64,000 nt of DNA, taken from an uncultured Methanobacterium sp. Its GTDB lineage: Archaea; Methanobacteriota; Methanobacteria; Methanobacteriales; Methanobacteriaceae. Below, piece by piece: positions 36,149 to 64,000 of the stretch; positions within the stretch are counted from its first letter, which is position 1, and the number at the start of each line of letters is the position of its first letter. Location: positions 10,326 through 74,325 of the forward strand of contig NZ_CAXXRN010000003.1 in NCBI RefSeq assembly GCF_963665055.2, read 5' to 3'. The notes below the pieces were generated by a model. The model searched no databases. It saw only the letters and a list, made by a program, of their open reading frames with translations, and was not told the origin of the DNA. A program made the position numbers and the translations under genes.

Positions 36149-38205
36149 TTAATGTGTGGTCCATGGTGTGTAGTTTACGTTTCCCTGTATCTGTGCACTG
36201 GGGTTATCATTGGATCCCCACCAGTTATTGGTGGCGTTGAGTGTGTTACTGGTTCCAGCATAGGTTAAACCATACTGACTACTACCAGTGATGCTGTTAC
36301 TGTTCACTGTGTTAGTAGAACTGTCCGTATCAACACGCACTCCAATAGGGTTCTCAGTGATGTTATTTGACAAAATCTGATTGTCCAAAGATGTATCCAG
36401 GAGACATACTCCCATCCAGGTGTTTTTGTTGACTAAATTACTGGTTATGTTGTTTCCATTGGCATTTTGAAGAAGAATACCAATGTTATTTCCAGAAATC
36501 TGCGTATTGTTGCCGATAGTATTGCTACTTGCACCAATAATTATTATTCCGTGTGCAGTGTTGTTCTGAATAGTATTCTGACTCACAGTGATACCATAAG
36601 CACCATTTTCAATCAAAACACCCTCTTCACCATTACCAGATATCAGATTAGCACTTATAGTTGAATCATGAGCATTATTAGCCCAAATTCCCAACCAACT
36701 GTTACCAGAGACATTGTTATTAGTTATCTGATTACCAAATGAACCAACCAATCCTACACCTACCTGATTACCAGAAATATTAAGATTACCTGTAACTTGA
36801 ACCTGGGAACTGTTGGAAATATAAACCCCATTCCGGAGGTTATTCACCAAAGTATTACCACTCACAGTTATATTTGAACTGTTTTCAATGAATACACCTT
36901 CAGGATTATTTGAAACCGTGTTTACATTGTTTATTGCGTTGTTTACACCATTATAAACCCAAATACCAGCCCATTTATTCACAGTAACGTTGTTACCCTG
37001 GACAAAGTTTCCAATAGCATTGAATAAGTCTATTCCAACGTTATTTCCAGAAATCTCAGTGTTATTCAAAATCTGATTACCAGTACTAGTTGCATCCGGT
37101 ATGAGAATTCCATTCCAGGTGTTATTCTTAATGGTATTGCCCGTCACAAGGTTGTCAGTGGAGTAACTTTGCAGCACAACACCTTCCTGGTTGTTGGAAA
37201 CTGTGTTACTATTTACAGAGGTGTTTGTGGTATTGTAAAGCCAGATTCCAGCCCAACTGTTCCCAGAAACATTATTACCCTGTACCGTGTTTCCGCTTGA
37301 ATAATACATCTTAACACCAACATCATTTCCAGAAATCTCAGTATTATTCACAACCTGATTACCAGTACTAATAGCATCCGGTACAAGAACACCATTCCAA
37401 GCGTTATCCTTAATCACATTATGAACCACATGATTATCATCAGAAGATCCCTGCAGTACTACTCCTTCCTGGTTATTAGAGATTTTGTTGTCTTTTATCG
37501 TGTTTTTTGAGGAGTTGTATGTGGCTACTCCTGCCCAATGGTTTTCAGTGACATTGTTTCCTTCAATGGTGTTTCCTGAGGAACCAGACACACTTACACC
37601 AATATTGTTCCCAGAAATCTCAGAATTTTCAGAAACAGTGTTATTATCCGAGTTATCCGTGATGAGCACACCATTCCAAGTATTATTCTTAATCACATTA
37701 TGAGTCACATGATTATCATCAGAAGAACCCTGCAGCACAACACCCTCCTGATTGTTAGACACTAAGTTGGAATCAACAGTATTCCCAGTACCATTACGCA
37801 CCAACACACCAACCCAACCATTAGAATCAACTTTGTTATTGATTAATACACTATTCCCTGTGTTGATGAGCTGTATTCCCACAACATTGCCAGTTGCGGT
37901 GTTGTTTATAATGTTAACATTGTTCGCAGAGTCAACACTTATTCCTGCTGCCCCGGTTGCGTTAGCAACTGTGAATCCGGTTATGGTGGTTCCAGATGCA
38001 TCTGAACCAGTGACGCTGATTATGGAAGAAGTTCCAGTACCTTTCAAAACAGCACCGTTACCCTCAAGGTTTAAAGCTTTAGAAATTGTCAATGCCATGT
38101 TGTTGTAAGTCCCAGTAAGGAAAGTTACAGTGTCCCCTACTCTTGCAGAGTTTATTAAAGACTGGACATAGGTGTTGTTCATTGTGGAAGCAACAATGAA
38201 ATTCT
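36149..38205 (-). repeat. Shared NosD beta-helix module, copy 1
   Basis: Near-identical stretches at DNA and protein level with 61761..63820, 52739..54515 and 48030..49420. Confidence 0.9.
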
Positions 38206-39421
38206 GTGGCTTGTTAAAATCATTTCCATTGCCAACCGTTACAATTCCATTGTTTAAATAGTACTGGTTGTATTGTACACTGTATTTTCCATCTTCACGT
38301 ATGTTTAGGGTGTTATTATCTATGTTAAGGTATTTTACATTGTGGTTTTCCATAGCTATGCCTATAACCGGATCATTGATGGTGTTGTTGGCGATAGTGG
38401 CAGATAATGTGCCATCAACTGGAGTACCCTTTCCAGTTATATTTATCCCGGTTAAAAGGATGTCATGGATAGTGTTTCCAGAAATAGTGCCGTTAAAGTT
38501 TCCTCCAATGAATATACCGTAATATACATTAACTATGGAATTGTTAGCCACCAGGGTGTTGGTGGCAGTTTCCATGGCACCCCTGTTAACCAGGGAGATA
38601 CCATCGTGATTACCATAGGAAGCAGAGGTCATGTTGCTGATGGAATTACCAACAACGGTCAGGTTCTGGTACTGGTGATTGATGTTGATCCCATCATCAA
38701 TATTGGAGATGGTATTATTTTTTATGAGGCTACTGAAAACGTAAGATCCATCTATACCGTTTAAATAACCGTAACAGCCATCGATCTGGTTATTGGTTAT
38801 AGTAAACCCGGATCCTTCTATATGCACTCCACCGGGGCTGTTGTATATTATGTTTTTGTCTATAAGGATGTTATTTTTACTGGATGTGGAACCCGTGTCT
38901 GTGATGTAAATTCCATAGCTGGGGTTTAGCTCAGTGTTATTGTAGATTCCATTTGATTTTATGGAGCTTTCATTGACATTGTTAAAGTAAATGCCCCGTA
39001 CCAGGTTGTTAAATGTGTTGTTTTCAATATTGATACGCGATGTTTTGCTTGCGTTGATACCATAACTGCCAGTGTTGGAGTCCACTCCATTCATGGTAAA
39101 TCCGGTGATGTTGGTTCCAGAGGCATTAGTACCGCTAATGGTGATAATTGTTGAATCAACATTACTGTTTAAAATAGCACCTAATCCTACCAGATTAACT
39201 GAGACTTTAGTTATGGTTAACGAAATATTGTTGTAGACTCCTGCCAGGAAATTCAGGGTATCTCCCGCATTACAGTAGTTAATTATAGTTTGAATATCAC
39301 TATTTGTCATGGATGAAGTAACATTGTAAGTTGCAGCAGACACCGGCTCACAAAATACAGTCCCTAAAGGGATAACTGCAGCCATTAAAAATAGTAACAC
39401 TCCTATTTTAATTTTTTTAAT
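36149..39421 (-). CDS. Secreted right-handed beta-helix (NosD/PbH1 repeat) surface protein, adhesin-like
   Basis: Signal peptide ending VSA; two beta-helix modules; C-terminal NATNNWWG...VNYTPW. Track start GTG 39400; in-frame ATT 39421 proposed. Confidence 0.9.
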   Translation of the reverse strand: MKKIKIGVLLFLMAAVIPLGTVFCEPVSAATYNVTSSMTNSDIQTIINYCNAGDTLNFLAGVYNNISLTITKVSVNLVGLGAILNSNVDSTIITISGTNASGTNITGFTMNGVDSNTGSYGINASKTSRINIENNTFNNLVRGIYFNNVNESSIKSNGIYNNTELNPSYGIYITDTGSTSSKNNILIDKNIIYNSPGGVHIEGSGFTITNNQIDGCYGYLNGIDGSYVFSSLIKNNTISNIDDGININHQYQNLTVVGNSISNMTSASYGNHDGISLVNRGAMETATNTLVANNSIVNVYYGIFIGGNFNGTISGNTIHDILLTGINITGKGTPVDGTLSATIANNTINDPVIGIAMENHNVKYLNIDNNTLNIREDGKYSVQYNQYYLNNGIVTVGNGNDFNKPQNFIVASTMNNTYVQSLINSARVGDTVTFLTGTYNNMALTISKALNLEGNGAVLKGTGTSSIISVTGSDASGTTITGFTVANATGAAGISVDSANNVNIINNTATGNVVGIQLINTGNSVLINNKVDSNGWVGVLVRNGTGNTVDSNLVSNNQEGVVLQGSSDDNHVTHNVIKNNTWNGVLITDNSDNNTVSENSEISGNNIGVSVSGSSGNTIEGNNVTENHWAGVATYNSSKNTIKDNKISNNQEGVVLQGSSDDNHVVHNVIKDNAWNGVLVPDAISTGNQVVNNTEISGNDVGVKMYYSSGNTVQGNNVSGNSWAGIWLYNTTNTSVNSNTVSNNQEGVVLQSYSTDNLVTGNTIKNNTWNGILIPDATSTGNQILNNTEISGNNVGIDLFNAIGNFVQGNNVTVNKWAGIWVYNGVNNAINNVNTVSNNPEGVFIENSSNITVSGNTLVNNLRNGVYISNSSQVQVTGNLNISGNQVGVGLVGSFGNQITNNNVSGNSWLGIWANNAHDSTISANLISGNGEEGVLIENGAYGITVSQNTIQNNTAHGIIIIGASSNTIGNNTQISGNNIGILLQNANGNNITSNLVNKNTWMGVCLLDTSLDNQILSNNITENPIGVRVDTDSSTNTVNSNSITGSSQYGLTYAGTSNTLNATNNWWGSNDNPSAQIQGNVNYTPWTTH

Positions 39422-40081: not shown

Positions 40082-43000
40082 ATGTTAAAAAATAAAAAAG
40101 CAATAATCTCACTGCTTTTAATAATATCTTCCTTTCTGGTTATGGGAACGGTAAGTGCTGAGGATCCTGTTGCTAATTGGACAAACAACTCCACAAATAG
40201 TACTAATCTAACTCTTAACCTGACTGATAACTCCACAGATAATGGTACTACTAATGCCAACTACGGTAGTGGGTCTAATGCAGAAAATTCCGTGGATTTC
40301 TCTGTAGAAAATCTAAACAGTACCATTGCTGAGTTTACCGCCAACAACAGTAGTCCTGTGACATCATGGAAATGGGACTTTGGCGACAGAACCACATCCA
40401 CCCAGCAAAAACCCACCCACAACTACTACCAGTCCGGGAGTTATCTGGTTAGTTTAACTGCAAATTTAACCAATGGCAGCGTAGCTACCGTGAATAAAAC
40501 CATTATTGTGGATGTGAAATCCCCAACCGCCAATGCCAGCCTCAATGGAGGCACATTCAATAACACACAAACAATTAACCTAACAGCGAGTGATGATAAT
40601 AACAATACAGTGATTTACTACACCACCGACGGCACAAACCCACAATCGAGTAACAGCAGAATCATTTACACCACACCCATTGTTTTAAACAATACAACCA
40701 CCCTGATATTCGCTGCACAGGATATTTCAGGCAAATGGAGCCAGTTGTACACTGAAAACTACACCATCATTCATTTTATTTATGCCAGTGACAACCAGAC
40801 CACTATACAGGCCATCCTGGATAATGCATCCCCTGGAAGCACCGTAGTATTTTCAGGAACGAACTATGAAAACCTGCATCTTGTAATCAATAAAAAATTG
40901 AATATAATCAGCTATGTGGGAACAAAAATTGTAACGATCAACGCTATAGGAACAGCGACCTACATCGATGATGGTGAAACTCGAACAGTTACTATTTATG
41001 ATACAGCCACTTCCCCAGTGTTTACCATAAAGGGGAGTCATGCGTCTGGAACCACGATAAGTGGGTTTACAATTTTTACAGACACTGATTCTGGAATATT
41101 CGTCAATAACTCCACTAATATTGTTATTTCACAGATGAACATTACTTCGGTTAATGGAACTGCAATCACCGTAAATGGTAGCTCGAACATCACCATCCTA
41201 TACAACAACCTTACTAACTCATACAACGGGATATGTATTTCTGAATCCAACAGTACTAATATTGTGGGAAACAACATTACAGGATACCAGAAAAACAATA
41301 TTTACCTTAAAAAGTCTCAAATTACCTACATTCAGGAAAATGACATCAACAGCACTTTCAGTGGGGTTAAAGTTCAAACCTGCTGTAACACCCAGATCAA
41401 TGGAAATAACATAACTACTGATATTAATGGGGGTAATTCAACAGTATTTTCCAACCCTAGCTTTGAAGATGGTTTAACTGGATGGGATACTGGTTCAGAA
41501 CTCAGCACAGTTAGAGTCAACGATGGTACATACAGTATTTTCCTGTCCCATAATGGCTACGTGCAGCAGGCGGTAGACTTAACCTCAATTGGTGTTATTT
41601 CATTCTGGGGATTCTGTGTGGAGGTTAGTTCCGTGGGAGGAACATTTGAATTGTACATTGATGGCCTTCTGGTTGGAACATTTGAAGTGAATAATGTCAG
41701 TCAAGAACACAAATGGGTACAATTCACCTGTAATTTCAATCCAATTTACTCTGGAAACCACACTGTGACTGTGAAGTGGATCGGGCCACACAGTGCTTAT
41801 ATAGATGATTTTTCTTCAGGAACCAGTAAAAATTCAGCTAATTTCACAGCTACAGTTACCAACAGCGAAACTGACCCCCTGACAGTGCAGTTTACTGACA
41901 CTTCTTCTGGTCTGGTGGACAGTTGGTTGTGGGACTTTGGTGATGGAACAACATCCACCGACCAAAACCCGGTACACACCTTCACCAAACTGGGAGTTTA
42001 CACTGTAAGCCTCACTGTAACCGGCCCCTACTATAATTCAACTGTAACCATGAAGGATCTCTTCAACATTGGTGGACCAGTGAACAACCGGACCGGGAAA
42101 ATTTACAACAACATCCCGGAAGCCATTGATGATATCGATACCATTGATGGTGACACCATACTGGTGGGCAACCATTCATACCTGGAAACTTACACCGAGA
42201 ATGTGAATGTAACTAAAAGGGTGAATATAATCAGCCAGGGCATGGTGATAATCACAGCCGCCGATATAAATCAACCTGTTTTTAACATCCTTCCCGGAGG
42301 GTTGGGTTCGCTCATCAGCGGATTCACCATAACCGGAGCAACTGGCTCCAGTGGAATTTACCTATCCCCCGGGTCCAGTGCCACCATAACCAGTAACATC
42401 ATCACCGGCAATAAAGTGGGAATTTACATCAATAACGCGGCATCAACTATTCATTTCAACGTTATTTACGATAATGACCTCTACGGTTTAATGTTCACTG
42501 GCAGCGGTGTGGAAGCATCTAATAACTGGTGGGGAACCAACAATCCCACCTACAAAAATGGCCTGACTGCCCCTGGAAAAACCGATATATACGAAGTCTC
42601 GACTGATAATCATGCCACCAATGACCCCTGGATTGTGTTAAAAGTAAATGTTTCTGATATTCTCCTAAAAGAGAATGCAACTTCCATAATTACCGCAAAT
42701 TTCGCCACCAACTCCCGGGGTGAGGATACTTCAAATTCTGGTAGTATCCCCTCAATACCTGTGGGATTCAGTTACGCTTTGGGAGAATTTAAAATATCTG
42801 GCACTGATGCCAGTCGTTCTGTAACTGTGAAAACCAGTAAAGGAAAAGCAACAACCACCCTAACTGCTGGTAGTCGGAGTGGATCCAGTTACTTGGTAGT
42901 TGCTGTTTGTGATGATGCTGTGAACTCTCTGGTAACTGTTGACACTATTGCACCAACTGTAAACACCACTTTAGAGGGAGGCCACTACAGTTCAGCCCAG

Positions 43001-46000
43001 ACTGTTACATTAATGAGTGATGACCCCTCTGCAGTGATTTATTACACCACTGACGGGACTCTTCCCCAGTCAAGTAACACCAAAAAACTGTATACTGGTC
43101 CTATTCCCATTACTGATTCTACAATTATCATGTACGCTGCCACAGACCTGGCTGGTAACTGGAGTCCCCTTTACCTCCAGTACTATATTATGGGAGTCTA
43201 CGGTCTGGAAGATTCTGCCTGGCCCAGCTTCCAGAATAACCAGAACAACACTGGACAGTCAGATTACAATGGCCCCCAGGCCAATACTACACAGTGGACC
43301 TTTGGAGACATCAGTGTTTATGGTTCAGCTGTAATCGGCTCTGATGGAACAGTATATGTTGGCGGTTATGATGGAATTTTATATGCTTTTAAAGCTGATG
43401 GAACCCTTAAATGGAAGTACATTACCCGGAGCAGCATAATAGGTTCCCCTATCATTGGCAGTGATGGTACCATATACTTCAGCAACTGGGTCAACAGTAC
43501 CACCTATGCTGTGAGCCCCAACGGAACACTTAAATGGAAATACACCACAGGGGGGAACAATTACGGCTCATCCCCAGTGATTGATTCAGATGGAATAATT
43601 TACACTGCCAGTAATCAGGGAGCTATTGGTACCCTGTATGCAATTTACCCCACCCAGATCCTAAAATGGAGTTATGACATGGGACTCCTTTACGGTAACT
43701 CAGCAGTTATAGGGGCAGATGGCACCATTTACATTGCAGACTACAATGGCATATTATACGCATTTAAAAATGACGGGACACTTAAATGGACCTATGAATT
43801 GAAGTACTTTTTATTATATGTACCTGGAATGGGCAATCTCATGGTTTCAGGGAATGTGATTTATTCCACTCCCTCCATTGGTCCAGATGGCACCATTTAC
43901 ATTGGAAACACCAAAGGGGCGTTAATGGCTGTTACTGATAATGGAACCTGCGGAGTGTATAAATGGAGTTTTTTAAACAATCATGAAGCTAATGAACCAT
44001 TATATGGTTCCCCTGCAATTTCGGCCAACGGGACCATTTACATCGTAAGCAGTAGCAAGCTTTACGCTGTGGACTCATCTGGAAATCTTCTGTGGAGCCA
44101 GGATATCGGAAGTATAGTTGGAACTGGGGTCACATCCCCTGCCATTGGTGCAGATGGAACCATCTACGTTGGAAGCAGCACTGGATTATATGCACTTAAT
44201 TCTGATGGAACCATTAAATGGAGTTACAGTACGGGTACTATCTGTGGATCCCCTGCAATAAGCAGTAACGGAACACTGTACATTGGAAGTATTAATACTG
44301 GAACCACTAACGGTACATTCTATGCTTTCAATGATATCAGCGCCAACTTTGAGTATAGGAGCGTTAACGAGACAACTGTGCAGTTTAATGATACTTCTAC
44401 CTGCCATCCTGTGTCATGGAAGTGGGATTTCGGTGATGGTTACACATCTACTGATGCCAACCCCACCCACATCTACAGTAAAACAGGCACATACACCGTG
44501 ACCCTTTCTGTTACTCTAAATGATAAAACTGTGATGAAAAGGGTAAAAACTGTGCTGATTCAGGAAACTGATATTACTGCTCCCACAGCAATGGCCAGCC
44601 CAGGTAGTGGGGAATTTAACACCGCCCCAGTAGTTACCTTAAGTGCCAGTGATAACAGTGGTAGTGCCACGATTTATTATACCAATGACGGTACTGACCC
44701 CCGCACCAGCACCACTAGAATTATTTACAAAAATCCATTGGTGATTTACAGCACAAGCACCATTAATTTCGCTGCAGTTGATGCCTCTGGAAACTGGAGT
44801 CCGGTTTACAATGCGACTTACACCGTACTTCTCGTTGAGTATGTGCAGCCGGCTTCTTATTATAACAGCAGCACGTTAAACAGTGATATACAGGATATCC
44901 TGGATAATGCAGTTAGTGGAAGTACGGTGATATTCTTAGGAGATTCTTACGATAATCTGCACCTGGTGGTTAATAAAAAACTGAACATAATCAGCCAGAA
45001 AATGACCAGAATATGGGTAACAGACTCCTCAACATCACCAGTATTTCTAATTAGTGGAACTACTGCATCAGGGACCGGTATAAACGGTTTTGTTATATTT
45101 ACCAGTGGAAGATCTGCAATAACCATTTACAACACCAATAATGTTACTATTTCAAATGTTAGCATGAGCGCCACCGGAGGATCTGCAATCATGGTTACTG
45201 GAAGTTCCAACACCACCTTAAACGATAACACCATCACCGGTTCTTTAAATGGAATTTACATCTCAGGGAGTAGTAACACCAAGATAACTGGAAACACCAT
45301 ACTGAAAAACCTGGAAAACGGAGTGAATATTGAAAATTCATCCAGCACAACCATAAACAGTGGTACTATCTCCAATAATGGTGAAAATGGTGTAAAAATG
45401 TACCACTCACCTGGAACAGTGATTAATGGCGTGATCATAACTGGTAACGGTAAAAACGGAACTGATACCAGGAGCGGAGTCTACATTGAGTCTTCAGATA
45501 ACGTTCTGGTTACTGGTAGCCAGATAACCGGGAACTGGAATGGGATTAAAACCACAGACCTCACCGGTTCCACCGTATCATATAACAACATCTCAGATAA
45601 CGAGAGGGATGGAGTTTTTATCACTGGAGAAACAGTGAACAGTCTCTTTTTAACCAACACCATTTCTGGAAATAACAATGGAATTAAACTGGATGGGCCC
45701 AGTCAGAACCTGACCCTGGAAGGTAATTTAATCACCGGGAGTGAATACGTTAATGACTCCAGTGTTGATAACAATTACAATGGTAGGGGCCTTGTATTTG
45801 GGGGAAACTGTCCCTATTCAGATACACTGGTTGTATCCCATAATGTGATCTGTGGTAATGCAGGTACTGATATTGAAACACGTTATGCCCAGGGTGGCCC
45901 GGTTATTGAGGATCTTACCGGTTCCAACTGGTCCGGTTGCCCTGCCTGTGGAGTGCCAACCCATGCTCAGTGCGGACCGGACTGCCAGTGCAGGAGATGG

Positions 46001-52738: not shown

Positions 52739-54515
52739 CTATTTTGTTGTCCATGGTGTGTAGTTTACGTTTCCCTGTATCTGTGCACTGGGGTTGTCAT
52801 TGGATCCCCACCAATTGTTGGTGGCGTTAAGTGTGTTACTGGTTCCAGCATAGGTTAAACCATACTGATTACTACCAGTGATACTGTTGTTGTTCACAAC
52901 ATTGGTAGAACTGTCCGTATCAACACGCACTCCAATAGGATTCTCAGTGATGTTATTAGACAAAATCTGATTATCCAAGGAGGTATCCAAGAGACATACT
53001 CCCATCCAAGTGTTGTTTTTCACCTGATTAGACGAGATTATGTTTCCATTAGCATTCTGAAGAAGAATACCAATGTTATTCCCAGAAATCTCCGTATTGT
53101 TGTCGATAGTATTGTTACTAGCACCAACAATGATTATTCCATGCGCAGTGTTGTTCTGAATAGTATTCTGACTCACAGTGATACCATAAGCACCATTTTC
53201 AATCAAAACACCTTCTTCACTACCTGAAATCGTGTTCCCACTAACTGTGGAGTTGTGTGCATTGTTTGCCCATACTCCTAACCAGCTGTTACCAGTTATA
53301 ATGTTGTTTTCAACCCGAACATCAGAAGATGATCCAGCTATTCCAACACCCACCTGATTACCTGAGATATTAGTGTTACCTGAAACCTGAATTAGAGAAC
53401 TATTAGAAATGTAAACCCCATTTCTAAGATTATTCACTAAAATATTTCCATTTACAACAGTATTTGAACTGTTTTCAATGAATATGCCTTCAGGGTTCGC
53501 AGAAACAGTGTTACCATTGGTGATTGTGTTGTTCACACCATTGTAAACCCAAATACCAGCCCATTTATTCGCAGTAACATTGTTACCCTGGACAAAGTTT
53601 CCAATAGCATTGAATAAGTCTATTCCCACGTTGTTTCCAGATATTTCAATGTTATTTGCTATTTGATTGTCATTACTGGTTGCATCCGGTATGAGAATTC
53701 CATTCCAGGTGTTGTTTCGAACAATATTCCCAGTTATGTTATTGTTATTTGCATTGTTTTGCAGAACAATTCCTTCCTGGTTGTTGGAAACTGTGTTACC
53801 ATTTACAGAGGTGTTTGTGGTATTATAAAGCCAAATGCCGGCCCAAATGTTCCCAGAAACATTGTTACCCTGTACTGTGTTTCCGTTGGAATAATACATC
53901 TTAACACCAACATCATTTCCAGAAATCTCAGTGTTATTCACAATCTGATTACCAGTACTGGTTGCATCAGGTATAAGCACACCGTTCCAGGTGTTGTTTT
54001 TGATGGTGTTACCAGTCACAAGGTTATTACTGGAAGAATTCTGCAGTACAACACCTTCCTGGTTGTTGGAAACCCTATTGGAAGCAATGGTGTTTCCAGT
54101 ACCATTGTACACCAGTATACCAACCCAGCTGTTGGAATCAACGTTGTTGTTATAAACTGTGCTTTGAACTGCGTTTGTGAGCTGTATCCCCACAACATTA
54201 CCAGTTAAAGTGTTGTTACTGATGGTTACATTGCTGGTAGAATCAACACTTATTCCAGCGGTTCCAGTTGCATTAACAACTGTGAATCCGGTTATTGTTG
54301 TTCCAGATACATTCAAACCAGTGACACTAATAACCGGGAGAGTTCCAGTACCACTCAAGATTGCGCCTTTGCTCACAAAGTTAAGTGTATGGGTGATGCT
54401 CAATGCCATGTTGTTGTAAGTTCCATTGAGGAACGTAACAACATCCCCTATACCTGAAGAATCTATAACAGCCTGAATTTCAGCACTGGACATGCTAGGA
54501 TTCACTAAGAAGTAC
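52739..54515 (-). repeat. Shared NosD beta-helix module, copy 3
   Basis: Ends SAQIQGNVNYTPWTTK, versus ...PWTTH in copies 1 and 4. Confidence 0.9.
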
Positions 54516-57500
54516 TCGGGGTTAATAATCACATCAGCATACACTGTTTGATTATCAGCTGTTGCATTTATGCTAGCTGTTCCAGGTACTACTCCAGCAT
54601 CAAATAGTGCAGAAGCAGTTCCATTAAATGTGGCCGTTACGTTTTTATCAAATTTTCCAAGATCTGTCTGGAAATACACCCAAGATCCATTGGGTATGTG
54701 ACCTATAGCTGGATCTAAAGTTGTCACTTCGGTTCCATTAAACAGGTTGTTGAAGTTGACAGTGACCAGACTACTCTGAGTCTTGTTGATTGTTGTGGGA
54801 CTGGCAAGAATGGTCATGTAGATCCACGGTGAGTAATTTACAGTTCCACTGATTAAACTGGCAAAATCTGGACTGTTTGAGCCCCACCAGTTGTATCTTG
54901 CGTCAACAATGCCACTACCTTTGTAAATAACAGTTCCAATACTTGCTATGTTTCCACTGAAATAGTTGTACTCAAGAACTGTTGATGGAGAACCACTAAA
55001 GATCGCACCACCATAAGTAACTGCTGTATTATTAATGAAAATGCTGTTAGTCACTGAGGAAGAAGTTCCACGATTATAAATAGCACCACCATTTGCTCCA
55101 CTGTTATTCATAAATACACTGTTGGTAACAATGAGATTTCCGCGAGAATAAATCGCCCCACCACTGTAACTACCACTACCAGCAAGTATGTTTGCGGTGT
55201 TGTTTACAAATGTGCAGTTGATTATATTTAAAGGCGAACTAACCTCATTACTGCAAATAGCACCACCACGCGCATTGTCGACCAACGCAGCATTGTTGTA
55301 GAATGTGGAGTTAACTGCAGTTACTAAATTACCAGTAGTGTATATTGCACCTGCAAAACCACCAGCAACATTATCACCGAACACAGAATTACTTACAGTT
55401 AAAGTACCACTGCTACCAGTATTATATAACGCGGCACCATTGTAAGAGGCAGTGTTATTTGAAAATGTGCCATTTATGACATTTACAGTACCTCCATTAT
55501 TATAGACGGCACCACCACTCTTATTAACACCTGCATTACGGGTAAATGTACTGTTAGTGATTAATAATGTCCCTATATTGTAAATTGCTCCGCCACCATA
55601 GCTAGTTGAGGTAGCATTGTTTCCAGAAAGGTTACAGTTTAGAACATTCAAAATTCCACTGTTGTATATAGCACCACCAGTATCGGCATTACCAGCCGTA
55701 ATAGTCAAATTCTCAATGGTAACTGTCACGGTAGATGGAATATTAAATACATTTCCCAATGCCAATGCATCTATAATTGTACCATGTTCACTACTACCCC
55801 TAATGGAGGCATTCTGATTTATAGTGATACCATGATCACCAGTCAAATTGTAGGTCCCATTAGCCAAGTAAACAGTTCCATTAACATTCAAAACACTCAA
55901 AGCCTGCTTAAGAGTTTGATATGGGTTAATTTGACTACCATCACCCGTAGTATCATTACCCGTAGGTGAAACGTAAACAGTGTTTAATCCCAAAGTAACC
56001 AGTGCAGACAATGTTTGCTGGTTGACAGCGGCTGTAACATTAGTCACACCACTAACACCAGAACCTGTTAGGTTCACCTGTGACTTACCATTTACCAGAG
56101 TACCATTGGTAATAGTTCCAAGAGTAGTTGCAAATGTTACATTTGTACCATCAGGGACATGACCCTGACTGGAAATGTCATTCCCATTACTATCATGGGT
56201 TAAATCCACAGTTATCTCTGATGTTCCATCTGAAGCAACAACAGTTGGAGATGCAGTTATATTTGCCACCATCCAAGGTGAGTAATTTGCTGTTCCACTA
56301 ATTAAACTGGCAAAATCTGGACTGTTTGAGCCCCACCAGTTGTATTTTAAGTCAGCACTGCCCATGTTTGTAATTACACTACCTGTAGGTGCACTGTTTC
56401 CAACAAAGGTGTTGTAGTAGGCAACCAGGGTTGCAGTGTTGTCAATTACTCCACTTTTACTTGCTGCAGTGTTGTTGGTGAAAGTACAACCAGTCATGTT
56501 GAGAGTACTGCTATCCCAGTTTTCAATAACTCCACCGGTAGTTGCAGTGTTGTTAATGAATATGGAATTTAACACAGTTAATGCACTGTTAGGGTCATTA
56601 TCAATTGCACCACCTATTGGGGAGGTGTTGTTGATAAAGGTAGATCCAGTTATGGTCATGGTGCTTTTGAAATTGCTTACTGCACCACCGCAGATAACTG
56701 CACTGTTGTTGATGAAAGTGCAGTCGGTTATAATTGCGGTACTGTAATTGTGGCTGTTAATAGCTCCTCCGTAACCTCGGCTGGTACTTGTAACAGTGTT
56801 TCCGGTGAAAGTACATCCGGATATATTGATTGAACTGGAATCCCATATACTGACTGCACCTGCTCTTTCGGCAGTGTTGTTGGTGAATGTACAGTTGATC
56901 ACAGTTGCTGTGCAACCATCATCCACGTTGAAAGCACCACCAGACTGCATAGCACTGTTTTTGATGAAAGTACAGTTTATCACCAGGACATTACCCACAG
57001 TACCAGATTTCCAGTTGTCAATTGCACCACCGTGACGTGTTCCGCAGCTGTTTGAGTAGAAGTAACTGTTGGTCAGTGTAACATTCTGGTAGTCGTAATT
57101 GTCTATGGCACCTCCACCATTACCTGCGTAATTGCTGTTAAATGAGCTGTTGTTAATGTTCAGTGTTCCGCTGTTGTAGATAGCGCCACCATTACCTGAA
57201 GTTGCGGTGTTCTGGTTGATGATTGAATCATTGATGGTTAATGTGCCGATGTTATAGATGGCTCCACCACCGGTACTGCTGGAAGTTGCTGTGTTTCCTG
57301 AAATGGTCACATTGGTGATTGTCAGGTTTCCACTGTTAGCAATTGCCCCCCCATTGGTGTATTTACCATTGATCAGAGTCATGTTGCTAATGTTTACGGT
57401 TACGTTGGATGGAATGATGAATATTACTCCCATATTTCCGGCATCAACTATGGTGTTAGCCTGTCCTGCTCCGAAAATACTTGCATTTCTTGTAACTGTG

Positions 57501-60500
57501 ACATTGTAATCACCGGGCAAGTTATAGGTCCCACTGACGAGATACACAATTCCGTTACTATTTATAACGCTGACTGCCTGTTGAATGGTCTGGTAAGGAT
57601 TGGATTCACTACCATCACCAGTCACATCACTACCAGTAGGGGACACATAGATTGTGCTTAAACCCATTACAATGGTTGATGTGGCGTTTTGGTGGTCTAC
57701 AGCAGTGGTGACATTGGCCACTCCACTAACACCTGAACCTACCAGGTTCATCTGTGCTTTGCCGTTTACAGTGGTTCCATTGGTTATATTACCAAGGGTT
57801 GTTTCAAAGATTACTGGGATACCATCTGGAATATGACCCTGGCTGGATGTATCATTACCCTTGTTATCATGAGTCATGTCTACTGTGATAACTGAAACAC
57901 CATCTGCAGCAATAATAGTAGGTGAAGCAGTTGTATTTGCTACAATCCATGCATTTACTGCTGCATTAATTTTTCCGGCTGTTTGAGGGTTAGTTCCATC
58001 TAAATTACTTCCCCACCAGTTATTTTCAGCATTGAATGAACCGCTTTTCTTGTTAAATACTGCCACACTACTGTTATCAACGATTCTGCAGAAGTTGATG
58101 TAAGTTGTACATGAATCACCAGCATTACAAACAGCTGATCCTCCACTTGATGCTGAGTTGTTGATGAATGTGGACTGCATTATGTAAACGGTTCCTTGTT
58201 TGTTTAAGATACCTCCACCGTAATCTGCGGTGTTATTGGTGAATATACTACCATTTACAGTGGTTGTTCCACCAGTACTATAGATTCCTGCACCCCAACC
58301 CACTGCAGTGTTGTTGGTGAATGCGCAATCTGTTACATAAGCTGTTCCAGCGCTGTAAATCGAAGCACCATTGTATGTAACGTAGTTGTTTGTAAACAAG
58401 CTATTATTCACATTTAATATTGAAGTACTATAGATTCCTGCACCTCTGGTTGCACTGTTACCCGTGAATATTCCGTTGTTGATGGTTAGTGTTCCAGTAC
58501 TGTATACTGCAGCACCATTTTCAGAATTAGATCCGGATAAAGTACTGTTACTCAGGTTTAAGTTTCCGGTGTTGTAAATTGCACCACCGTATGTAGCATT
58601 ATTCCCAGAAAGTGTACTGTTATTCATATACAGGGCTCCTGTATTGTAGATAGCGCCCCCATTAGTTGCATAGTTACCTGAGAACAAACTTTGGGTGATA
58701 TCTAACGTTCCGGTGTTGTATATGGCTCCTCCACCAAGAGTAGTGGAAGTTGAATTTCCATTGGATAGTATCAAATTTACAAGGTATAACGTTCCATCAT
58801 TGGATATCAAACTGCCGGTGCTGGTTGCGCCGTTAGTCAGTGTCATGTTTTTAATGGTTAACGTGACATTTGATGAAATGTTAAATATGTTGCCAAGTCC
58901 TTCTGCACTGATAATAGTGCTGTTTGCATCTACTCCACTTATTGTTGCGTTTCCAACAACGTTAAGGTTGTAATCACCCGGCAAGTTGTAGGTTCCATTG
59001 AATAAATGGATCAAAGTTCCATTTTCACTGAGTGCTTTCCCAACAGTCTGGTAAGGATTAGATTCACTACCATCACCAGTCACATCACTACCAGTTGGAG
59101 AAACAAATATTATTTTTCCAATGGCTACGGTTGTGGTGCTGTTTTGCTCATCAATTGTGGCTGTCACAGTAGCAATACCTCCAACACCAGATCCAGTGAG
59201 GTTAACTTTTGATTTACCATTAACTGTGGTTCCATTAGTTATGTTACCCAGTGTAGTTTGGAAGTTCACAGGAATTCCATCAGGAAGATGACCCTGACCT
59301 GAAGTATCGTTTCCATTACTGTCATGAGTTAAATCCACAGTGATGTCTGAAGTTCCGTTGTAGGATATTTCTACAGGTGATGTACTGACCGAGGACACTA
59401 TCCAGGGACCAACAGTCACGTTACCAGTGACGAAACTTGAAGGATTAGCGTTACTGCCCCACCAGTTCCAGGTAGCATTCACAGACCCACTGTTACAGTA
59501 GATAGCAGTGCTGTTTGCACCGATGCTGTTGAAATGCATAGCCACTATTCCACCTGTGTTGTATAATATTCCACCTGTGGTGGCAGTGTTAGCTTCAATT
59601 AGATTACTGGTCAAGAATGCATTTCCACCGGTAATATATGATACTCCACCGGAGTTGGTTGCATTGTTCTGCAGTAAACTGCTGCTGGCAACATTCACTG
59701 TGCCACCGCTACTGTAAACAACCCCACCATTACTGGCACTGTTGTTACTGAAGGTACAGTTTATCATTGCAGCATTAGCAGTGGTTCCAGTATTGACTAT
59801 TACCCCACCGTAACCTGTTGCAGTGTTGTTAGTGAATCCAGAATCATTCACAATTAAATTCCCATAACTGTTGTAAATAACACCACCGTATGAAGATGCG
59901 GTGTTTTTATCAAAGGAGGAATTACTCACTATTAAATTCCCGTAAGTATTGTAAACTACACCACCGTAAGTTGTTGCAGTGTTGTTGTTCAATACGGAAT
60001 TAGTGACTGTGAAATTTCCATAAGAATTGTAAACCACACCACCGTATCTGGTTGCAGCATTGCTGTTAACCGTACTGCTGTCGATATTTACAATTCCCTT
60101 ATTGTTATAGATTGCACCACCATTTCGGGCAGTGTTACTGTTTAAAGTACTGTTTTTGATGGTTACTGTTCCAGTATTGTAGATTGCTCCCCCACCAAGA
60201 GTACTTGAAGTGGATGTAGCTTTATTTCCTGAAACATTAGAATTTTCAATGGTTAAGGTTCCACTATTGTAGAAAGCACCACCACTGGCTGCAGACCCGT
60301 TGATAATTGTTAAATTTTCAAGGGTAACTGAAATACCAGATAGTATGGTGAATATCGATGAACCACTGGTGTTTCCATTGATTATTGTACCATTCTGGCT
60401 TGTACCGATTATGGTCATGTTGTTGGCTATGGTTATCCCTGATTCAGTGTAAGTTCCATCAGCAATATTAACCGTACCATTATTGGTTACTGTCCCAGTA

Positions 60501-60739
60501 GCATTCTTTATTGATAGCTTAGGACCGCTTCCAGTCACATTATCATAAACAGCACTTTGACCATCCCAGGAATCATTTCCACTGTTGTTATTCACGTAGA
60601 TTGTTCCGGGATCTGCTGAAACAGGACCCACGCCAAATGCAAAAATTATTGCAAAAAACAAAAAAATTGTAAGAATAAGTGTCTTATTCCCTAACTTAGG
60701 CCTTTTAGTTCCTGTTCTATTGATTGTTCCATTTTGAAT
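52739..60739 (-). CDS. Giant secreted adhesin-like protein (~2670 aa): repeated GGAI beta-helix and Ig-like units, C-terminal NosD module
   Basis: Three (F/Y)VSPTG.D.TGDGS..NPYQT units, repeated WWGSN/TVDLTHD/GH.PDG Ig-like linkers. Track start 60841 and ATG 60787 are alternatives to the proposed ATT 60739. Confidence 0.9.
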   Translation of the reverse strand: MQNGTINRTGTKRPKLGNKTLILTIFLFFAIIFAFGVGPVSADPGTIYVNNNSGNDSWDGQSAVYDNVTGSGPKLSIKNATGTVTNNGTVNIADGTYTESGITIANNMTIIGTSQNGTIINGNTSGSSIFTILSGISVTLENLTIINGSAASGGAFYNSGTLTIENSNVSGNKATSTSSTLGGGAIYNTGTVTIKNSTLNSNTARNGGAIYNNKGIVNIDSSTVNSNAATRYGGVVYNSYGNFTVTNSVLNNNTATTYGGVVYNTYGNLIVSNSSFDKNTASSYGGVIYNSYGNLIVNDSGFTNNTATGYGGVIVNTGTTANAAMINCTFSNNSASNGGVVYSSGGTVNVASSSLLQNNATNSGGVSYITGGNAFLTSNLIEANTATTGGILYNTGGIVAMHFNSIGANSTAIYCNSGSVNATWNWWGSNANPSSFVTGNVTVGPWIVSSVSTSPVEISYNGTSDITVDLTHDSNGNDTSGQGHLPDGIPVNFQTTLGNITNGTTVNGKSKVNLTGSGVGGIATVTATIDEQNSTTTVAIGKIIFVSPTGSDVTGDGSESNPYQTVGKALSENGTLIHLFNGTYNLPGDYNLNVVGNATISGVDANSTIISAEGLGNIFNISSNVTLTIKNMTLTNGATSTGSLISNDGTLYLVNLILSNGNSTSTTLGGGAIYNTGTLDITQSLFSGNYATNGGAIYNTGALYMNNSTLSGNNATYGGAIYNTGNLNLSNSTLSGSNSENGAAVYSTGTLTINNGIFTGNSATRGAGIYSTSILNVNNSLFTNNYVTYNGASIYSAGTAYVTDCAFTNNTAVGWGAGIYSTGGTTTVNGSIFTNNTADYGGGILNKQGTVYIMQSTFINNSASSGGSAVCNAGDSCTTYINFCRIVDNSSVAVFNKKSGSFNAENNWWGSNLDGTNPQTAGKINAAVNAWIVANTTASPTIIAADGVSVITVDMTHDNKGNDTSSQGHIPDGIPVIFETTLGNITNGTTVNGKAQMNLVGSGVSGVANVTTAVDHQNATSTIVMGLSTIYVSPTGSDVTGDGSESNPYQTIQQAVSVINSNGIVYLVSGTYNLPGDYNVTVTRNASIFGAGQANTIVDAGNMGVIFIIPSNVTVNISNMTLINGKYTNGGAIANSGNLTITNVTISGNTATSSSTGGGAIYNIGTLTINDSIINQNTATSGNGGAIYNSGTLNINNSSFNSNYAGNGGGAIDNYDYQNVTLTNSYFYSNSCGTRHGGAIDNWKSGTVGNVLVINCTFIKNSAMQSGGAFNVDDGCTATVINCTFTNNTAERAGAVSIWDSSSINISGCTFTGNTVTSTSRGYGGAINSHNYSTAIITDCTFINNSAVICGGAVSNFKSTMTITGSTFINNTSPIGGAIDNDPNSALTVLNSIFINNTATTGGVIENWDSSTLNMTGCTFTNNTAASKSGVIDNTATLVAYYNTFVGNSAPTGSVITNMGSADLKYNWWGSNSPDFASLISGTANYSPWMVANITASPTVVASDGTSEITVDLTHDSNGNDISSQGHVPDGTNVTFATTLGTITNGTLVNGKSQVNLTGSGVSGVTNVTAAVNQQTLSALVTLGLNTVYVSPTGNDTTGDGSQINPYQTLKQALSVLNVNGTVYLANGTYNLTGDHGITINQNASIRGSSEHGTIIDALALGNVFNIPSTVTVTIENLTITAGNADTGGAIYNSGILNVLNCNLSGNNATSTSYGGGAIYNIGTLLITNSTFTRNAGVNKSGGAVYNNGGTVNVINGTFSNNTASYNGAALYNTGSSGTLTVSNSVFGDNVAGGFAGAIYTTGNLVTAVNSTFYNNAALVDNARGGAICSNEVSSPLNIINCTFVNNTANILAGSGSYSGGAIYSRGNLIVTNSVFMNNSGANGGAIYNRGTSSSVTNSIFINNTAVTYGGAIFSGSPSTVLEYNYFSGNIASIGTVIYKGSGIVDARYNWWGSNSPDFASLISGTVNYSPWIYMTILASPTTINKTQSSLVTVNFNNLFNGTEVTTLDPAIGHIPNGSWVYFQTDLGKFDKNVTATFNGTASALFDAGVVPGTASINATADNQTVYADVIINPEYFLVNPSMSSAEIQAVIDSSGIGDVVTFLNGTYNNMALSITHTLNFVSKGAILSGTGTLPVISVTGLNVSGTTITGFTVVNATGTAGISVDSTSNVTISNNTLTGNVVGIQLTNAVQSTVYNNNVDSNSWVGILVYNGTGNTIASNRVSNNQEGVVLQNSSSNNLVTGNTIKNNTWNGVLIPDATSTGNQIVNNTEISGNDVGVKMYYSNGNTVQGNNVSGNIWAGIWLYNTTNTSVNGNTVSNNQEGIVLQNNANNNNITGNIVRNNTWNGILIPDATSNDNQIANNIEISGNNVGIDLFNAIGNFVQGNNVTANKWAGIWVYNGVNNTITNGNTVSANPEGIFIENSSNTVVNGNILVNNLRNGVYISNSSLIQVSGNTNISGNQVGVGIAGSSSDVRVENNIITGNSWLGVWANNAHNSTVSGNTISGSEEGVLIENGAYGITVSQNTIQNNTAHGIIIVGASNNTIDNNTEISGNNIGILLQNANGNIISSNQVKNNTWMGVCLLDTSLDNQILSNNITENPIGVRVDTDSSTNVVNNNSITGSNQYGLTYAGTSNTLNATNNWWGSNDNPSAQIQGNVNYTPWTTK

Positions 60740-61760
60740 TTTTTTCCCTCCTATTCTTTTTTTAACACGAATGATATGAAAATTCATGCATGTCGAAGTA
60801 TTGTGATAATATAATATAAAGTTAACTATAAAAAATTTCAATAACCCCTTGGGATTTGGTTTTGAGTTTTACTAGTTAGCATTATTCTTTTTTAATTGGA
60901 CGCATGACGAATTTAAGACATTTTTATACATTATTATGAGTATTAAAATTATTATAATCCTTTTCATTATAATTTAACGAACTAAAATTATTTCTGCAGG
61001 GAAAAATTACGTGATAATTTGTTTAAGACTTAAATTTTTGTTAATTAGATGTTTTCAGAATTATTATACACAAAATATGGGATAATAGAACATAAAATTG
61101 TAGAAGACATGATAATGATTGAATGGTTATTATAAAGATGTTATTTTTGGAATTTAGTCAAAAATTGGGAATATAATCTGATTCATGAATTGAAAACAAT
61201 CAATCAGTTTAAACCGAAAATAAAATAGATTAGTGAATTATATGATTAAATAACCCCAATAATTAACAAAAATGATAAAAAAAGTAAAATAAAGCAATTA
61301 AACTATGAACAAGATACAAACAACTAATAAGAAAAAACTGAATCAATAAAATAACTATACTTTAACTAAAAAGAGAGAATTAAAGAATATAACCTATTTA
61401 GTTAGCTATTATTAATTTTAAGAATTATAATCGATATATCATTAATTTAGATGATTATTATTGGAATAAACAACAGAAACTTATTAAAAATTTCCAAAAA
61501 TTACCGATTTAATGGCCTCTCAAAAACTCCCACCATATTACATTCACTATATGAATTAATCTGCATGTCAATTAAGTTTCCAATTACAATTTTAATATTT
61601 TTATAAACCAACACGATTCAACTAATCTATAAGCTTATCATAAAAATGAAAAAATGAAAATTCATATTCAAAAACTTTTCGTTATCTAAATTTAAAAAGT
61701 TAAAAAAAAAGGGAAAAGGAAAAAAGGAGAGAAAAAAAGAATTCTCCTTAAACTATTTTT

Positions 61761-63820
61761 TTAATGTGTGGTCCATGGTGTGTAGTTTACGTTTCCCTGT
61801 ATCTGCGCACTGGGGTTGTCATTGGATCCCCACCAGTTATTGGTGGCATTGAGAGTGTTGTTGGTTCCAGCATAGGTTAAACCATACTGATTGCTATTGG
61901 TGATACTGTTGTTGTTCACAACATTACTGGAACTATCAGTATCAACACGCACTCCAATAGGGTTCTCAGTGATGTTATTTGACAGAATCTGATTGCCTCT
62001 GGAGGTATCCAAGAGACATACTCCCATCCAGGTGTTTTTGTTGACTAAGTTACTGGTTATGTTGTTTCCATTGGCATTTTGAAGAAGTATACCAATGTTA
62101 TTTCCAGATATTTCAGTGTTGTTTTCAATGTTGTTATTGTCAGCACCTATGATGATTATTCCGTGTGCAGTGTTGTTCTGAATAGTATTCTGACTCACAG
62201 TGATACCATAAGCACCGTTTTCAATCAGAACACCTTCTTGACTACCAGAAATCGTGTTCCCACTAACTGTGGAGTTGTGTGCGTTGTTTGCCCATACTCC
62301 TAACCAGCTGTTACCAGTTATAATGTTGTTTTCAACCCGAACATCAGAAGATGATCCAGCTATTCCAACACCCACCTGATTACCTGAGATATTACCGTTA
62401 CCGATAACTTGAACAAGGGAACTGTTGGAAATGTAAACCCCATTCCGGAGGTTATTCACCAAAGTGTTACCACTCACAGTTATGTTTGAACTGTTTTCAA
62501 TGAATATGCCTTCAGGGTTCGCCGAAACAGTGTTACCATTGGTGATTGTGTTGTTTACACCATTGTAAACCCAAATACCAGCCCATTTATTCATAGTAAC
62601 GTTGTTACCCTGAACAAAGTTTCCAATAGCATAGAACAGGTCTATTCCCACGTTATTTCCGGAAATTTCAACGTTCTGCGAAATTGTATTGTTATTGCAA
62701 GTTGCATCTGGTATGAGAATTCCATTCCAAGTATTGTTTCGAACAATATTCCCAGTTATGTTATTGTTATTTGCATTGTTTTGCAGAACAATTCCTTCCT
62801 GGTTGTTGGAAACTGTGTTACCGTTTACAGCGGTGTTTGTGGTGTTGTAGAGCCAGATTCCAGCCCAACTGTTCCCAGAAACATTGTTACCCTGTACTGT
62901 GTTTCCGTTGGAATAATACATCTTAACACCAACATCATTTCCAGAAATCTCAGTGTTATTCACAACCTGATTACCAGTACTGGTTGCATCAGGTATAAGC
63001 ACACCGTTCCAGGTGTTGTTTTTGATGGTGTTACCAGTTACATTGTTCTCATCAGAAGATCCCTGCAGTACTACTCCTTCCTGGTTATTAGAGATTTTGT
63101 TGTCTTTTACCGTGTTTTTTGAGGAGTTGTATGCGGCTACTCCTGCCCAATGATTTTCAGTGACATTGTTTCCTTCAATGGTGTTTCCTGAGGAACCAGA
63201 CACACTTACACCAATATTGTTTCCAGAAATCTCAGAATTTTCAGAAACAGTGTTATTATCCGAATCATCCGTGATAAGTACGCCATTCCAGGTGTTATTC
63301 TTAATCACATTATGAGTCACATGGTTATCATCAGAAGAACCCTGCAGCACAACACCCTCCTGATTGTTAGACACTACGTTGGAATCAACAGTATTCCCAG
63401 TACCATTACGCACCAACACACCAACCCAACCATTAGAATCAGCAGTGTTATTGTGAACATTGCTTTGATCTGCGTTTATTAACTGTATTCCCACAACATT
63501 GCCAGTTGCGGTGTTGTTTATAATGTTTACATTGTTAGCAGAGTCAACACTTATTCCTGCTGCCCCGGTTGCGTTAGCAACTGTGAATCCGGTTATGGTG
63601 GTTCCAGATGCATCTGAACCAGTGACGCTGATTATGGAAGAAGTTCCAGTACCTTTCAAAACAGCACCGTTACTCACCAGGTTAAGTGTATGGGTGATGC
63701 TCAGTGCCATGTTGCTGTAAGTTCCATTGAGGAAGGTTATGGTGTCTCCAACCATTGCGCTATCAATTATGGACTGGATATAGGTGTTGTTCATGGTTGA
63801 AGCTACAATGAAGTTTTGAG
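61761..63820 (-). repeat. Shared NosD beta-helix module, copy 4
   Basis: Closest to copy 1, including about 75 bp of downstream non-coding sequence. Confidence 0.9.
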
Positions 63821-64000
63821 AGTTGCTTAAATTGTTGCTGTCTCCTACAATGAGGTCACCATTTTTCTGGAAGTTCTTAGTGTACTGTACGTTGAATCCG
63901 TTACTCTGTATGTTGTTATTCTGTAAGTTTATGTAAGTAGATGGAGATTCAAAGACAATACCCAGCTGACCTGCATTGGTTATGTTGTTGCCAGTAATGT
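61761..64000 (-). CDS. Secreted NosD beta-helix surface protein, 5' part outside the window
   Basis: Frame stays open from 63794 to the window edge (…ITGNNITNAGQLG…QNFIVASTMNN); C-terminus near-identical to that of 36149..39421. Confidence 0.92.
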   Translation of the reverse strand, partial: ITGNNITNAGQLGIVFESPSTYINLQNNNIQSNGFNVQYTKNFQKNGDLIVGDSNNLSNSQNFIVASTMNNTYIQSIIDSAMVGDTITFLNGTYSNMALSITHTLNLVSNGAVLKGTGTSSIISVTGSDASGTTITGFTVANATGAAGISVDSANNVNIINNTATGNVVGIQLINADQSNVHNNTADSNGWVGVLVRNGTGNTVDSNVVSNNQEGVVLQGSSDDNHVTHNVIKNNTWNGVLITDDSDNNTVSENSEISGNNIGVSVSGSSGNTIEGNNVTENHWAGVAAYNSSKNTVKDNKISNNQEGVVLQGSSDENNVTGNTIKNNTWNGVLIPDATSTGNQVVNNTEISGNDVGVKMYYSNGNTVQGNNVSGNSWAGIWLYNTTNTAVNGNTVSNNQEGIVLQNNANNNNITGNIVRNNTWNGILIPDATCNNNTISQNVEISGNNVGIDLFYAIGNFVQGNNVTMNKWAGIWVYNGVNNTITNGNTVSANPEGIFIENSSNITVSGNTLVNNLRNGVYISNSSLVQVIGNGNISGNQVGVGIAGSSSDVRVENNIITGNSWLGVWANNAHNSTVSGNTISGSQEGVLIENGAYGITVSQNTIQNNTAHGIIIIGADNNNIENNTEISGNNIGILLQNANGNNITSNLVNKNTWMGVCLLDTSRGNQILSNNITENPIGVRVDTDSSSNVVNNNSITNSNQYGLTYAGTNNTLNATNNWWGSNDNPSAQIQGNVNYTPWTTH

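Follow-up and report, generated by a model that had tools for sequence, protein, structure and literature searches.

A 64,000-nucleotide stretch of DNA from an uncultured Methanobacterium sp. (contig NZ_CAXXRN010000003.1; this whole stretch is hereafter the window) closes with an array of giant genes, four of which (c1–c4) encode the same C-terminal module behind different N-terminal parts. The module copies are mosaics: the closest partner of each copy changes in blocks along its length, and this holds at synonymous sites alone, while the copies of this genome remain more alike than copies from different genomes. The mosaic arises by recombination, with neither selection nor chance as its source, and very probably reflects short-tract gene conversion among paralogues in an array of adhesin-like protein (ALP) genes.

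Five giant open reading frames (ORFs) fill the window from 36 kb to its end, four on the minus strand and one on the plus strand:

36149..39400, minus: c1, a 1083-aa predicted secreted beta-helix protein (ORF translation, Pfam Beta_helix/NosD, AlphaFold2 (AF2) model); aa 1–398 are its own N-terminal beta-helix, aa 399–1083 the shared module (window 36149–38220; boundary by blastn)
40082..46657, plus: a 2191-aa predicted surface protein with a C-terminal transmembrane (TM) anchor (Pfam)
47098..52443, minus: c2, 1781 aa, with PMP-type repeats, a Big-like domain, part of the module and a transglutaminase-like tail; the module portion is the first 1.4 kb (48015–49425), with a divergent tail thereafter
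52739..60841, minus: c3, 2700 aa, with three PMP-repeat/Big-like blocks and then a complete module (52739–54517); the block common to c2 and c3 reaches upstream of the module, to 54895 in c3
61761..64000+, minus: c4, a 5′-open gene with a complete module, including an extra unit, at 61761–63832

An earlier sequence-only reading had described a module of ~1.4–2.1 kb in four genes behind different N-terminal parts, and blastn and Pfam bear this out, with a single common 3′ block of 1.4–2.1 kb following N-terminal parts that are unrelated. By blastn, the block spans 2.07 kb at 86% identity between c1 and c4, continuing ~120 nt beyond both stop codons, 1.33 kb at 89% between c3 and c4, 1.33 kb at 83% between c1 and c3, and 1.79 kb at 88% between c2 and c3, where it takes in the Big-like domain upstream of the module. 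Similarity to c2 ends after 1.4 kb, at the start of the tail peculiar to that gene. The abrupt onset of c1/c4 similarity at QNFIVAST, which the same reading had pointed out, was found at window positions 38220 and 63832. The 5′ junction of the module differs between c1/c4 and c2/c3, and c2 also has a different 3′ end. The plus-strand gene has no match of at least 150 nt to module DNA by blastn and stands outside the exchange group, although it is sited inside the array.

Internally, the module consists of units of 279 nt (93 aa) that are 66–72% alike; these were found by blastn and were not detected by Tandem Repeats Finder. An alignment gap and a 279-nt diagonal offset reveal an additional unit in c1 and c4 that is missing from c2 and c3, and across this unit, previously put at ~70 aa and in fact 93 aa long, c1 and c4 are 93–98% identical. 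The c1/c4 block also includes the 3′ flank:

37481..37759, minus: extra 279-nt (93-aa, four-coil) unit of c1, present only in c1 and c4
63093..63371, minus: extra 279-nt unit of c4, counterpart of c1 37481–37759
36028..36148, minus: 3′ flank of c1, common to the c4 3′ flank at 61641–61760, with a T-rich terminator-like stretch

The 3′ flanks of c1, c3 and c4 (36028–36148, 52707–52738 and 61641–61760) have in common a GGAGAATTC-T-rich terminator-like sequence, which indicates that the homogenised unit includes the transcription end.

The changing partnerships are visible in the translations and the alignment, where each of the motif groupings listed by the sequence-only reading was recovered: c1 and c4 share SDASG...SANNV and the extra SDDNHVTH unit, c2 and c3 share LTNAVQSTVY, the copies c2, c3 and c4 have QNNANNNNITGNIVR where c1 has QSYSTDNLV, and c3 and c4 have IAGSSSDVRVENN where c1 and c2 have LVGS...GNG(E/G)EG. 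Quartet-informative sites support the groupings 14|23 (n = 148), 12|34 (n = 43) and 13|24 (n = 29) and lie in contiguous blocks rather than interleaved. No single tree fits the module, as had been claimed: in the core of the four-way alignment (1428 ungapped columns, 160 quartet-informative sites) the topology switches 22 times, compared to 81 ± 5 times in shuffles (minimum 58; 0/100,000 permutations), and a PHI-like neighbour-incompatibility index gives z = −16.6. Among codons that encode the same amino acid in every copy (62 synonymous informative sites), 10 switches are observed against 31.8 ± 3.1 expected, with a minimum of 18 in 100,000 shuffles. Breakpoint intervals measure 19–54 nt, examples in c1 being 37412–37431, 37235–37274 and 36755–36793.

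Pairwise identity swings between ~70% and 100% over 100–300 nt. For example, c1 and c2 are 97–98% identical at alignment columns 340–380, dropping to 75% directly after, and c3 and c4 reach 95–97% at columns 540–600, where c2 and c3 are at 73–79% with 100% identity on both sides. Identical runs reach 215 and 198 nt for the pair c2–c3 and 136 nt for c1–c4. The four-way alignment with a GENECONV-like run test, a check proposed by the sequence-only reading, yielded significant pairwise tracts (p < 1e-4), which are listed here with a 12|34 block:

37927..38060 = 63539–63672, minus: c1 = c4, 54 consecutive polymorphic sites agree
48535..48736 = 53627–53828, minus: c2 = c3, 58 polymorphic sites agree
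48259–48451 = 53351–53543, minus: second c2 = c3 tract, 47 sites
53264..53366 = 62286–62388, minus: c3 = c4, 35 polymorphic sites, where c2 and c3 are only 73–79% identical
48622–48708 = 53714–53800 = 62736–62822, minus: c2 = c3 = c4 (run test)
37274..37412, minus: 12|34 block, 15 sites, with c1 and c2 97–99% identical and c3 and c4 together

This last block has 14|23 blocks on either side, and the order of topology blocks along the module, C-A-C-B-C-A-B, shows the background topology resuming after short inserts, which argues for patch-wise conversion rather than a few unequal crossovers. Synonymous divergence (dS) follows the same pattern, jumping for a given pair from 0–0.08 to 0.7–2.1 between adjacent segments: c1–c2 dS is 0.08 in segment S2 and 0.76–0.89 in S3–S5, c3–c4 dS is 0.06–0.09 in S2/S5 and 0.42–0.97 in the other segments, c2–c3 dS is 0–0.08 in S1/S3/S4 and 0.69–0.91 in S2/S5/S6, and c1–c3 dS reaches ~2.1 in S5. 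Since the segments of one pair differ at least tenfold in dS, they differ in age, and these differences, together with the persistence of the blocks at synonymous sites, show that the mosaic is not due to selection.

Patchwork of this kind could also be produced by an assembler switching between near-identical repeats, given that the identical runs (215 nt in c2–c3, 136 nt in c1–c4) are longer than common k-mer sizes and that the source is a 79-kb contig whose sequencing technology is not known. We regard such an artefact as extremely unlikely. Many tracts are 93–99% rather than 100% identical (97–99% for c1–c2, 95–99% for c3–c4), which is not what a path switch would give; the patches are short, bounded on both sides within 100–400 nt with breakpoint intervals of 19–54 nt; the ORFs, 3–8 kb in length, are all open; and an independent 2.95-Mb contig from a different sample, described below, has an array of its own with the same kind of patchwork.

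Exchange is not confined to equivalent positions of the module. One patch in c1 departs from register:

37035..37201, minus: patch in unit C of c1, best match in the preceding unit B of c3/c2

This patch (QSYSTDNLV...ATSTGNQILNN) is 85.6% identical over 167 nt to unit B of c3/c2, compared to 77.6% in register and 74–78% to unit C of any copy, and is an out-of-register conversion. Similarly, the start of unit B in c1 comprises three adjoining stretches with three different best partners, in that nt 0–45 match unit B of c4 at 98%, the 39 nt after them match unit A at 87% but unit B of c4 at 56%, and the following 36 nt match unit B of c2 at 97%. These three partners and the unit C patch show that exchange also takes place between units, and the extra unit of c1 and c4 likely stems from the gain or loss of a whole unit.

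In a collection of 5.8 billion proteins, close homologues of the module were limited to c2 of the window and proteins from a single contig (2.95 Mb) assigned to an uncultured Methanobacterium (hereafter the relative). Searches with module patterns in genome_contigs and metagenome_contigs returned only relatives of at most 36% identity, and nine related Methanobacterium genomes contained only relatives of at most 48% identity. Judging from these searches, the module appears to be lineage-specific, confined to this Methanobacterium and the one relative. The relative's contig contains exactly four module-bearing genes (1195, 2567, 1821 and 1838 aa), in an array that adjoins GT4, methyltransferase, GT4 and DUF2206 genes syntenic with 27.6–33.3 kb of the window. 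The modules of these genes are likewise mosaic (8 switches observed, 51.6 ± 4.1 expected), and a metagenome contig of 2.95 Mb would imply long reads. The same mosaic in the relative's own array indicates biology rather than misassembly of the window contig.

Comparison between species, which draws on this one genome and on FastTree local supports for the segment trees, shows the window copies forming one cluster and rA, r1 and r2 of the relative another, in nearly every sliding window and in six segment trees, with the internal branching order of each genome's cluster changing from segment to segment. Module identity is 83–89% within the window, with tracts of up to 100%, and 70–76% between the genomes; for single-copy genes in the flanks, the two genomes agree at 76% and 68%, similar to the between-genome range of the module. 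The modules thus evolve in concert within each genome.

Recombination with other strains or species, or with unsampled paralogues, might instead have made most of the patchwork, a reading that we consider highly improbable. It would account for patches such as S3 of c1 (71–72%) and S5 of c3/c4 (dS ~2.1), which are as far from their sister copies as from the copies of the other species, the S5 patch having no donor in the window, and for motif likenesses across species (ATC..N.IS in c4, r0, rA and r2; an indel of one residue (+1) common to c3, c4 and r2). The strongest tracts, however, are common to copies within the window at 97–100% identity, one divergent patch has an out-of-register donor inside the window, the nucleotide segment trees contain no supported cross-species clades, and the protein database shows no close module copies beyond this genome and the one relative.

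The N-terminal parts, or heads, of c1–c3 have no significant match (E < 1e-10) among the heads of the four genes in the relative's array. Taken together, the differing 5′ junctions, the differing 3′ end of c2 and the unmatched heads indicate that the module is a portable constant part, joined by separate events. The middle part of the plus-strand gene is 44% identical at the amino-acid level, over 477 aa, to the N-terminal part of the relative's module-bearing rA. Judging from this likeness, heads may be passed between ALPs that bear the module and ALPs with a TM anchor. The arrays themselves are placed differently: in the relative, the ALP array lies immediately upstream of the GT4/methyltransferase/GT4/DUF2206 cluster (L057, 21.2–25.5 kb), whereas in the window it lies downstream of that cluster (27.6–36 kb), after Polysacc_synt and FmdE genes and on the opposite strand. 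Placement on opposite sides implies either rearrangement or independent formation of the arrays.

We propose the following explanation. The module DNA, with up to ~120 nt of 3′ flank, would behave as dispersed direct repeats, between which ordinary homologous recombination would repeatedly copy tracts of ~40–400 nt from paralogue to paralogue. Modules would thereby become patchworks of segments that differ in genealogy and age, while copies within one genome would remain more alike than copies across species. Misaligned events would copy unit onto unit, or add or remove a 279-nt unit, shifting rod length in steps of four coils, and separate partial duplications or illegitimate joins would put the module behind unrelated N-terminal parts. 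The conversion is presumably non-reciprocal and carried out by the general recombination machinery. Exchange may still be active, as hinted at by tracts with dS of 0–0.08 and by identical runs of up to 215 nt.

Several points weigh against this explanation. One genome cannot show non-reciprocity, and some of the breakpoints could be unequal crossovers in a tandem array. A number of patches are highly divergent and lack an in-window donor (S5 of c3/c4, with dS ~2.1 to c1, and S3 of c1 are examples; one such orphan patch of c3/c4 is placed at 53220–53380), and these may come from unsampled paralogues or other strains. The sequencing technology behind the window contig, already mentioned, belongs here as well. 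Finally, species-wise clustering could in part have arisen because the array expanded separately in the two lineages, a possibility raised by the non-orthologous N-terminal parts and by the location of the arrays on different sides of the GT/DUF2206 cluster.

Selection on the module is purifying: the ratio of nonsynonymous to synonymous divergence (dN/dS) is ~0.1–0.25 in every module segment and between species. Variable positions make up 28% of strands and 27% of turns of the fold, with no excess in turns. These two results indicate that conversion homogenises a constrained structure rather than diversifying a binding surface. The earlier proposal that gene conversion or domain shuffling diversifies adhesins therefore stands in part: both conversion and shuffling have support, the latter from unrelated heads here and in the relative, while diversification is not supported, with dN/dS at ~0.1–0.25.

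The same data bear on the idea of programmed diversification, in which segmental conversion is selected to make new surface variants for antigenic or receptor variation. In keeping with it are the tandem arrangement of mosaic surface-protein genes, tracts so recent that dS is ~0, a rod length that varies by whole units and the pairing of one module with different heads. Nonetheless, we find it quite improbable, because the four genes are full-length, with their own hydrophobic leaders and upstream regions and without silent cassettes, dN/dS is ~0.1–0.25 in each segment with no excess change in turns, most tracts are old (dS 0.4–2), no recombinase, reverse transcriptase or repeat-tract switch lies near the genes, and the exchanged parts are not the variable, presumably ligand-specific N-terminal parts.

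A search for dedicated machinery gave negative results throughout. Among window ORFs of at least 150 aa there is no recombinase, integrase, transposase or reverse transcriptase, in agreement with the sequence-only reading, which had noted the absence of recombinase and reverse transcriptase genes. The window contains no promoterless module fragments or silent cassettes outside genes, and no homopolymer or simple-sequence-repeat switch tracts were found upstream of the giant genes. Cassette-based antigenic variation was rejected as a candidate on two counts: there are four full-length genes, with neither silent donor cassettes nor module fragments outside genes in the window, and diversifying selection is not seen, dN/dS being 0.1–0.25 in all segments. 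A diversity-generating retroelement was rejected as well, with no reverse transcriptase domain in window ORFs of at least 150 aa and with synonymous changes of all kinds.

The AF2 model of the c1 module (predicted local distance difference test, pLDDT, 92.8; predicted template modelling score, pTM, 0.87) is a single uninterrupted right-handed beta-helix (RBH), composed entirely of three-stranded coils with an N-terminal capping helix, in which each 93-aa unit corresponds to four coils. On the basis of this model, the module is predicted to be a continuous right-handed parallel beta-helix of roughly 27–28 coils with an NWWGSN...PW end motif. The parallel beta-helix repeat TIGR03804 was confirmed by NCBIfam. 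Foldseek matches are to beta-helix lyases, epimerases, tailspikes and NosD at 10–19% identity, so low that they identify the fold and not the function. NosD identity (TIGR04247) was considered and rejected: scores were 125–188 bits compared to a cut-off of 300, and the window contains no nos genes, leaving only the fold and repeat in common.

The K-rich n-region, hydrophobic stretch and VSA|A/D motif found at the N-termini of c1, c2 and c3 (that of c4 lies beyond the window) bear on the possible role of the module as a wall-proximal part, the ‘common stalk’ of the sequence-only reading, and can be read in two ways. Leaders ending in VSA|A/D resemble signal-peptidase sites, and a C-terminal anchor is absent from c1, c3 and c4; the ALP literature, on the other hand, takes such N-terminal helices as membrane anchors (PMC11532034), which would place the module at the distal end. 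The module may serve as a rigid rod, may bind the wall or glycans, or may do both.

The host is a Methanobacterium, within the Methanobacteriales, the NrpR encoded in the window being 88–90% identical to that of Methanobacterium metagenome-assembled genomes (MAGs). The left half of the window contains genes for ThiC, GlnA, an archaeal DNA ligase and glycosylation. All five giant proteins have Beta_helix/NosD repeats (Pfam, with matches at E 1e-66 to 1e-80), c2 and c3 have Chlamydia-PMP-type repeats, c2 has a transglutaminase-like tail and c3 a weak Invasin_D3 (Big-like) match (all Pfam), while the plus-strand gene encodes three PKD domains, three CHB_HEX_C domains, a beta-propeller, its own beta-helix and a Ser/Gly-rich linker. 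Large size with an N-terminal hydrophobic helix and the presence of RBH/Big-like domains, both hallmarks of ALPs, are found here, and by these sequence features the locus is an array of ALP genes of a Methanobacterium, ‘adhesin-like’ being an annotation label.

Further features of the individual genes were observed. In c3, 55835–59356 holds three ~70%-alike copies of a block of PMP-repeat beta-helix plus Big-like domain, each closing with the NWWGSN...PW cap motif, as the shared module does; near the 5′ end of the gene, 59805–60057 is a 78-nt tandem repeat of 3.2 copies. In the start region of c1 (39400–39440, minus), a strong GGAGG precedes the assumed GTG start by 28 nt, and in-frame ATT codons at 39427 and 39421 stand at normal spacing after this GGAGG and would add a K-rich n-region (IKKIKIG) of the type characteristic of such leaders; the start of c1 may thus be non-canonical or mis-called. 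The transglutaminase-like tail of c2 (47098–47560) has G-Y-V-W at the expected catalytic His, with GNCVD and DAT retained, and may be an inactive, wall-binding domain. Upstream of an intact GT4 gene (29750–30874), a GT4 glycosyltransferase gene and an FkbM-type methyltransferase gene (window 27641–29722) are fragmented into overlapping ORFs:

27641–28135, 28057–28557 and 28457–28852: ORFs of the broken GT4 gene
28938–29099, 29068–29328 and 29249–29722: ORFs of the broken FkbM-type methyltransferase gene

The relative's counterparts of both genes are intact (L057, 21242–22477 and 22533–23339), and the fragmentation reflects either decaying genes or local indel errors.

Gene conversion between paralogues is classic in bacterial surface-protein families, such as babA/babB/babC of Helicobacter pylori and the pmp genes of Chlamydia. 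As in those families, full-length paralogues here swap short tracts by homologous recombination, resulting in mosaics with concerted shared ends. Differences are the archaeal host with its pseudomurein wall and the exchange of an internally repetitive beta-helix, whose repetitiveness also leads to exchange out of register and to units being gained or lost; for this array, nothing supports a switch in expression or in ligand specificity. Cassette-based antigenic variation is known from Neisseria pilE/pilS, Borrelia vlsE and Anaplasma msp2. These systems likewise produce mosaic surface-protein genes by segmental transfer, which there is non-reciprocal, but the array has neither an expression site with silent cassettes nor positively selected hypervariable regions, specialised cis elements or a recombinase.

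Among archaea, the duplicated mtrA genes of methanogens have undergone long-lasting gene conversion (PMC4632066), and polyploid archaea (haloarchaea) show intermolecular conversion between their genome copies (PMC11276520). Both cases involve the same conversion between duplicated sequences, presumably by the same machinery, and show it to be active and long-lived in methanogens/Euryarchaeota; they differ in concerning housekeeping genes or whole genome copies, rather than a multi-gene surface array with head swapping. The locus is a clear archaeal example of a well-known process, with no new mechanism.

ALPs have been described in Methanobacteriales such as Methanobrevibacter smithii and Methanosphaera stadtmanae, and are more similar within than between species (PMC11532034, PMC13658579). 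The proteins of the window resemble them in being giant and repeat-rich, with an N-terminal hydrophobic helix, RBH and Big-like domains and an occasional transglutaminase-like tail. Unlike the ALPs described, the RBH module here is C-terminal, common to several genes and limited to this Methanobacterium and one relative. By word search, ‘recombination’ and ‘gene conversion’ are absent from both of those papers, and ‘mosaic’ is absent from PMC13658579, which indicates that the mechanism behind ‘species-specific adhesiomes’ is not described in them.

A further, rather unlikely possibility is that the module and its 3′ flank constitute a selected ‘recombination handle’. If so, the homogenised handle would let the methanogen mount new N-terminal heads on a common rod whose length changes by four coils at a time. 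The surface repertoire of each lineage would then be species-specific and quick to evolve, serving to bind partners or evade viruses, and the handle would parallel, in an archaeon, the contingency adhesin families of bacteria.

ALPs occupy a large and little-understood part of Methanobacteriales genomes, and the species-specific ‘adhesiomes’ described in recent surveys come with no named mechanism. In the array, the case that conversion between paralogues, together with unit slippage and head swapping, shapes ALPs is clean and statistically strong, and a second genome replicates it. For this family, whole-protein phylogenies will mislead, and short-read MAGs will tend to drop or scramble such arrays. 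The shared module, rather than the heads, is the conserved target for studying or blocking the display of these proteins.

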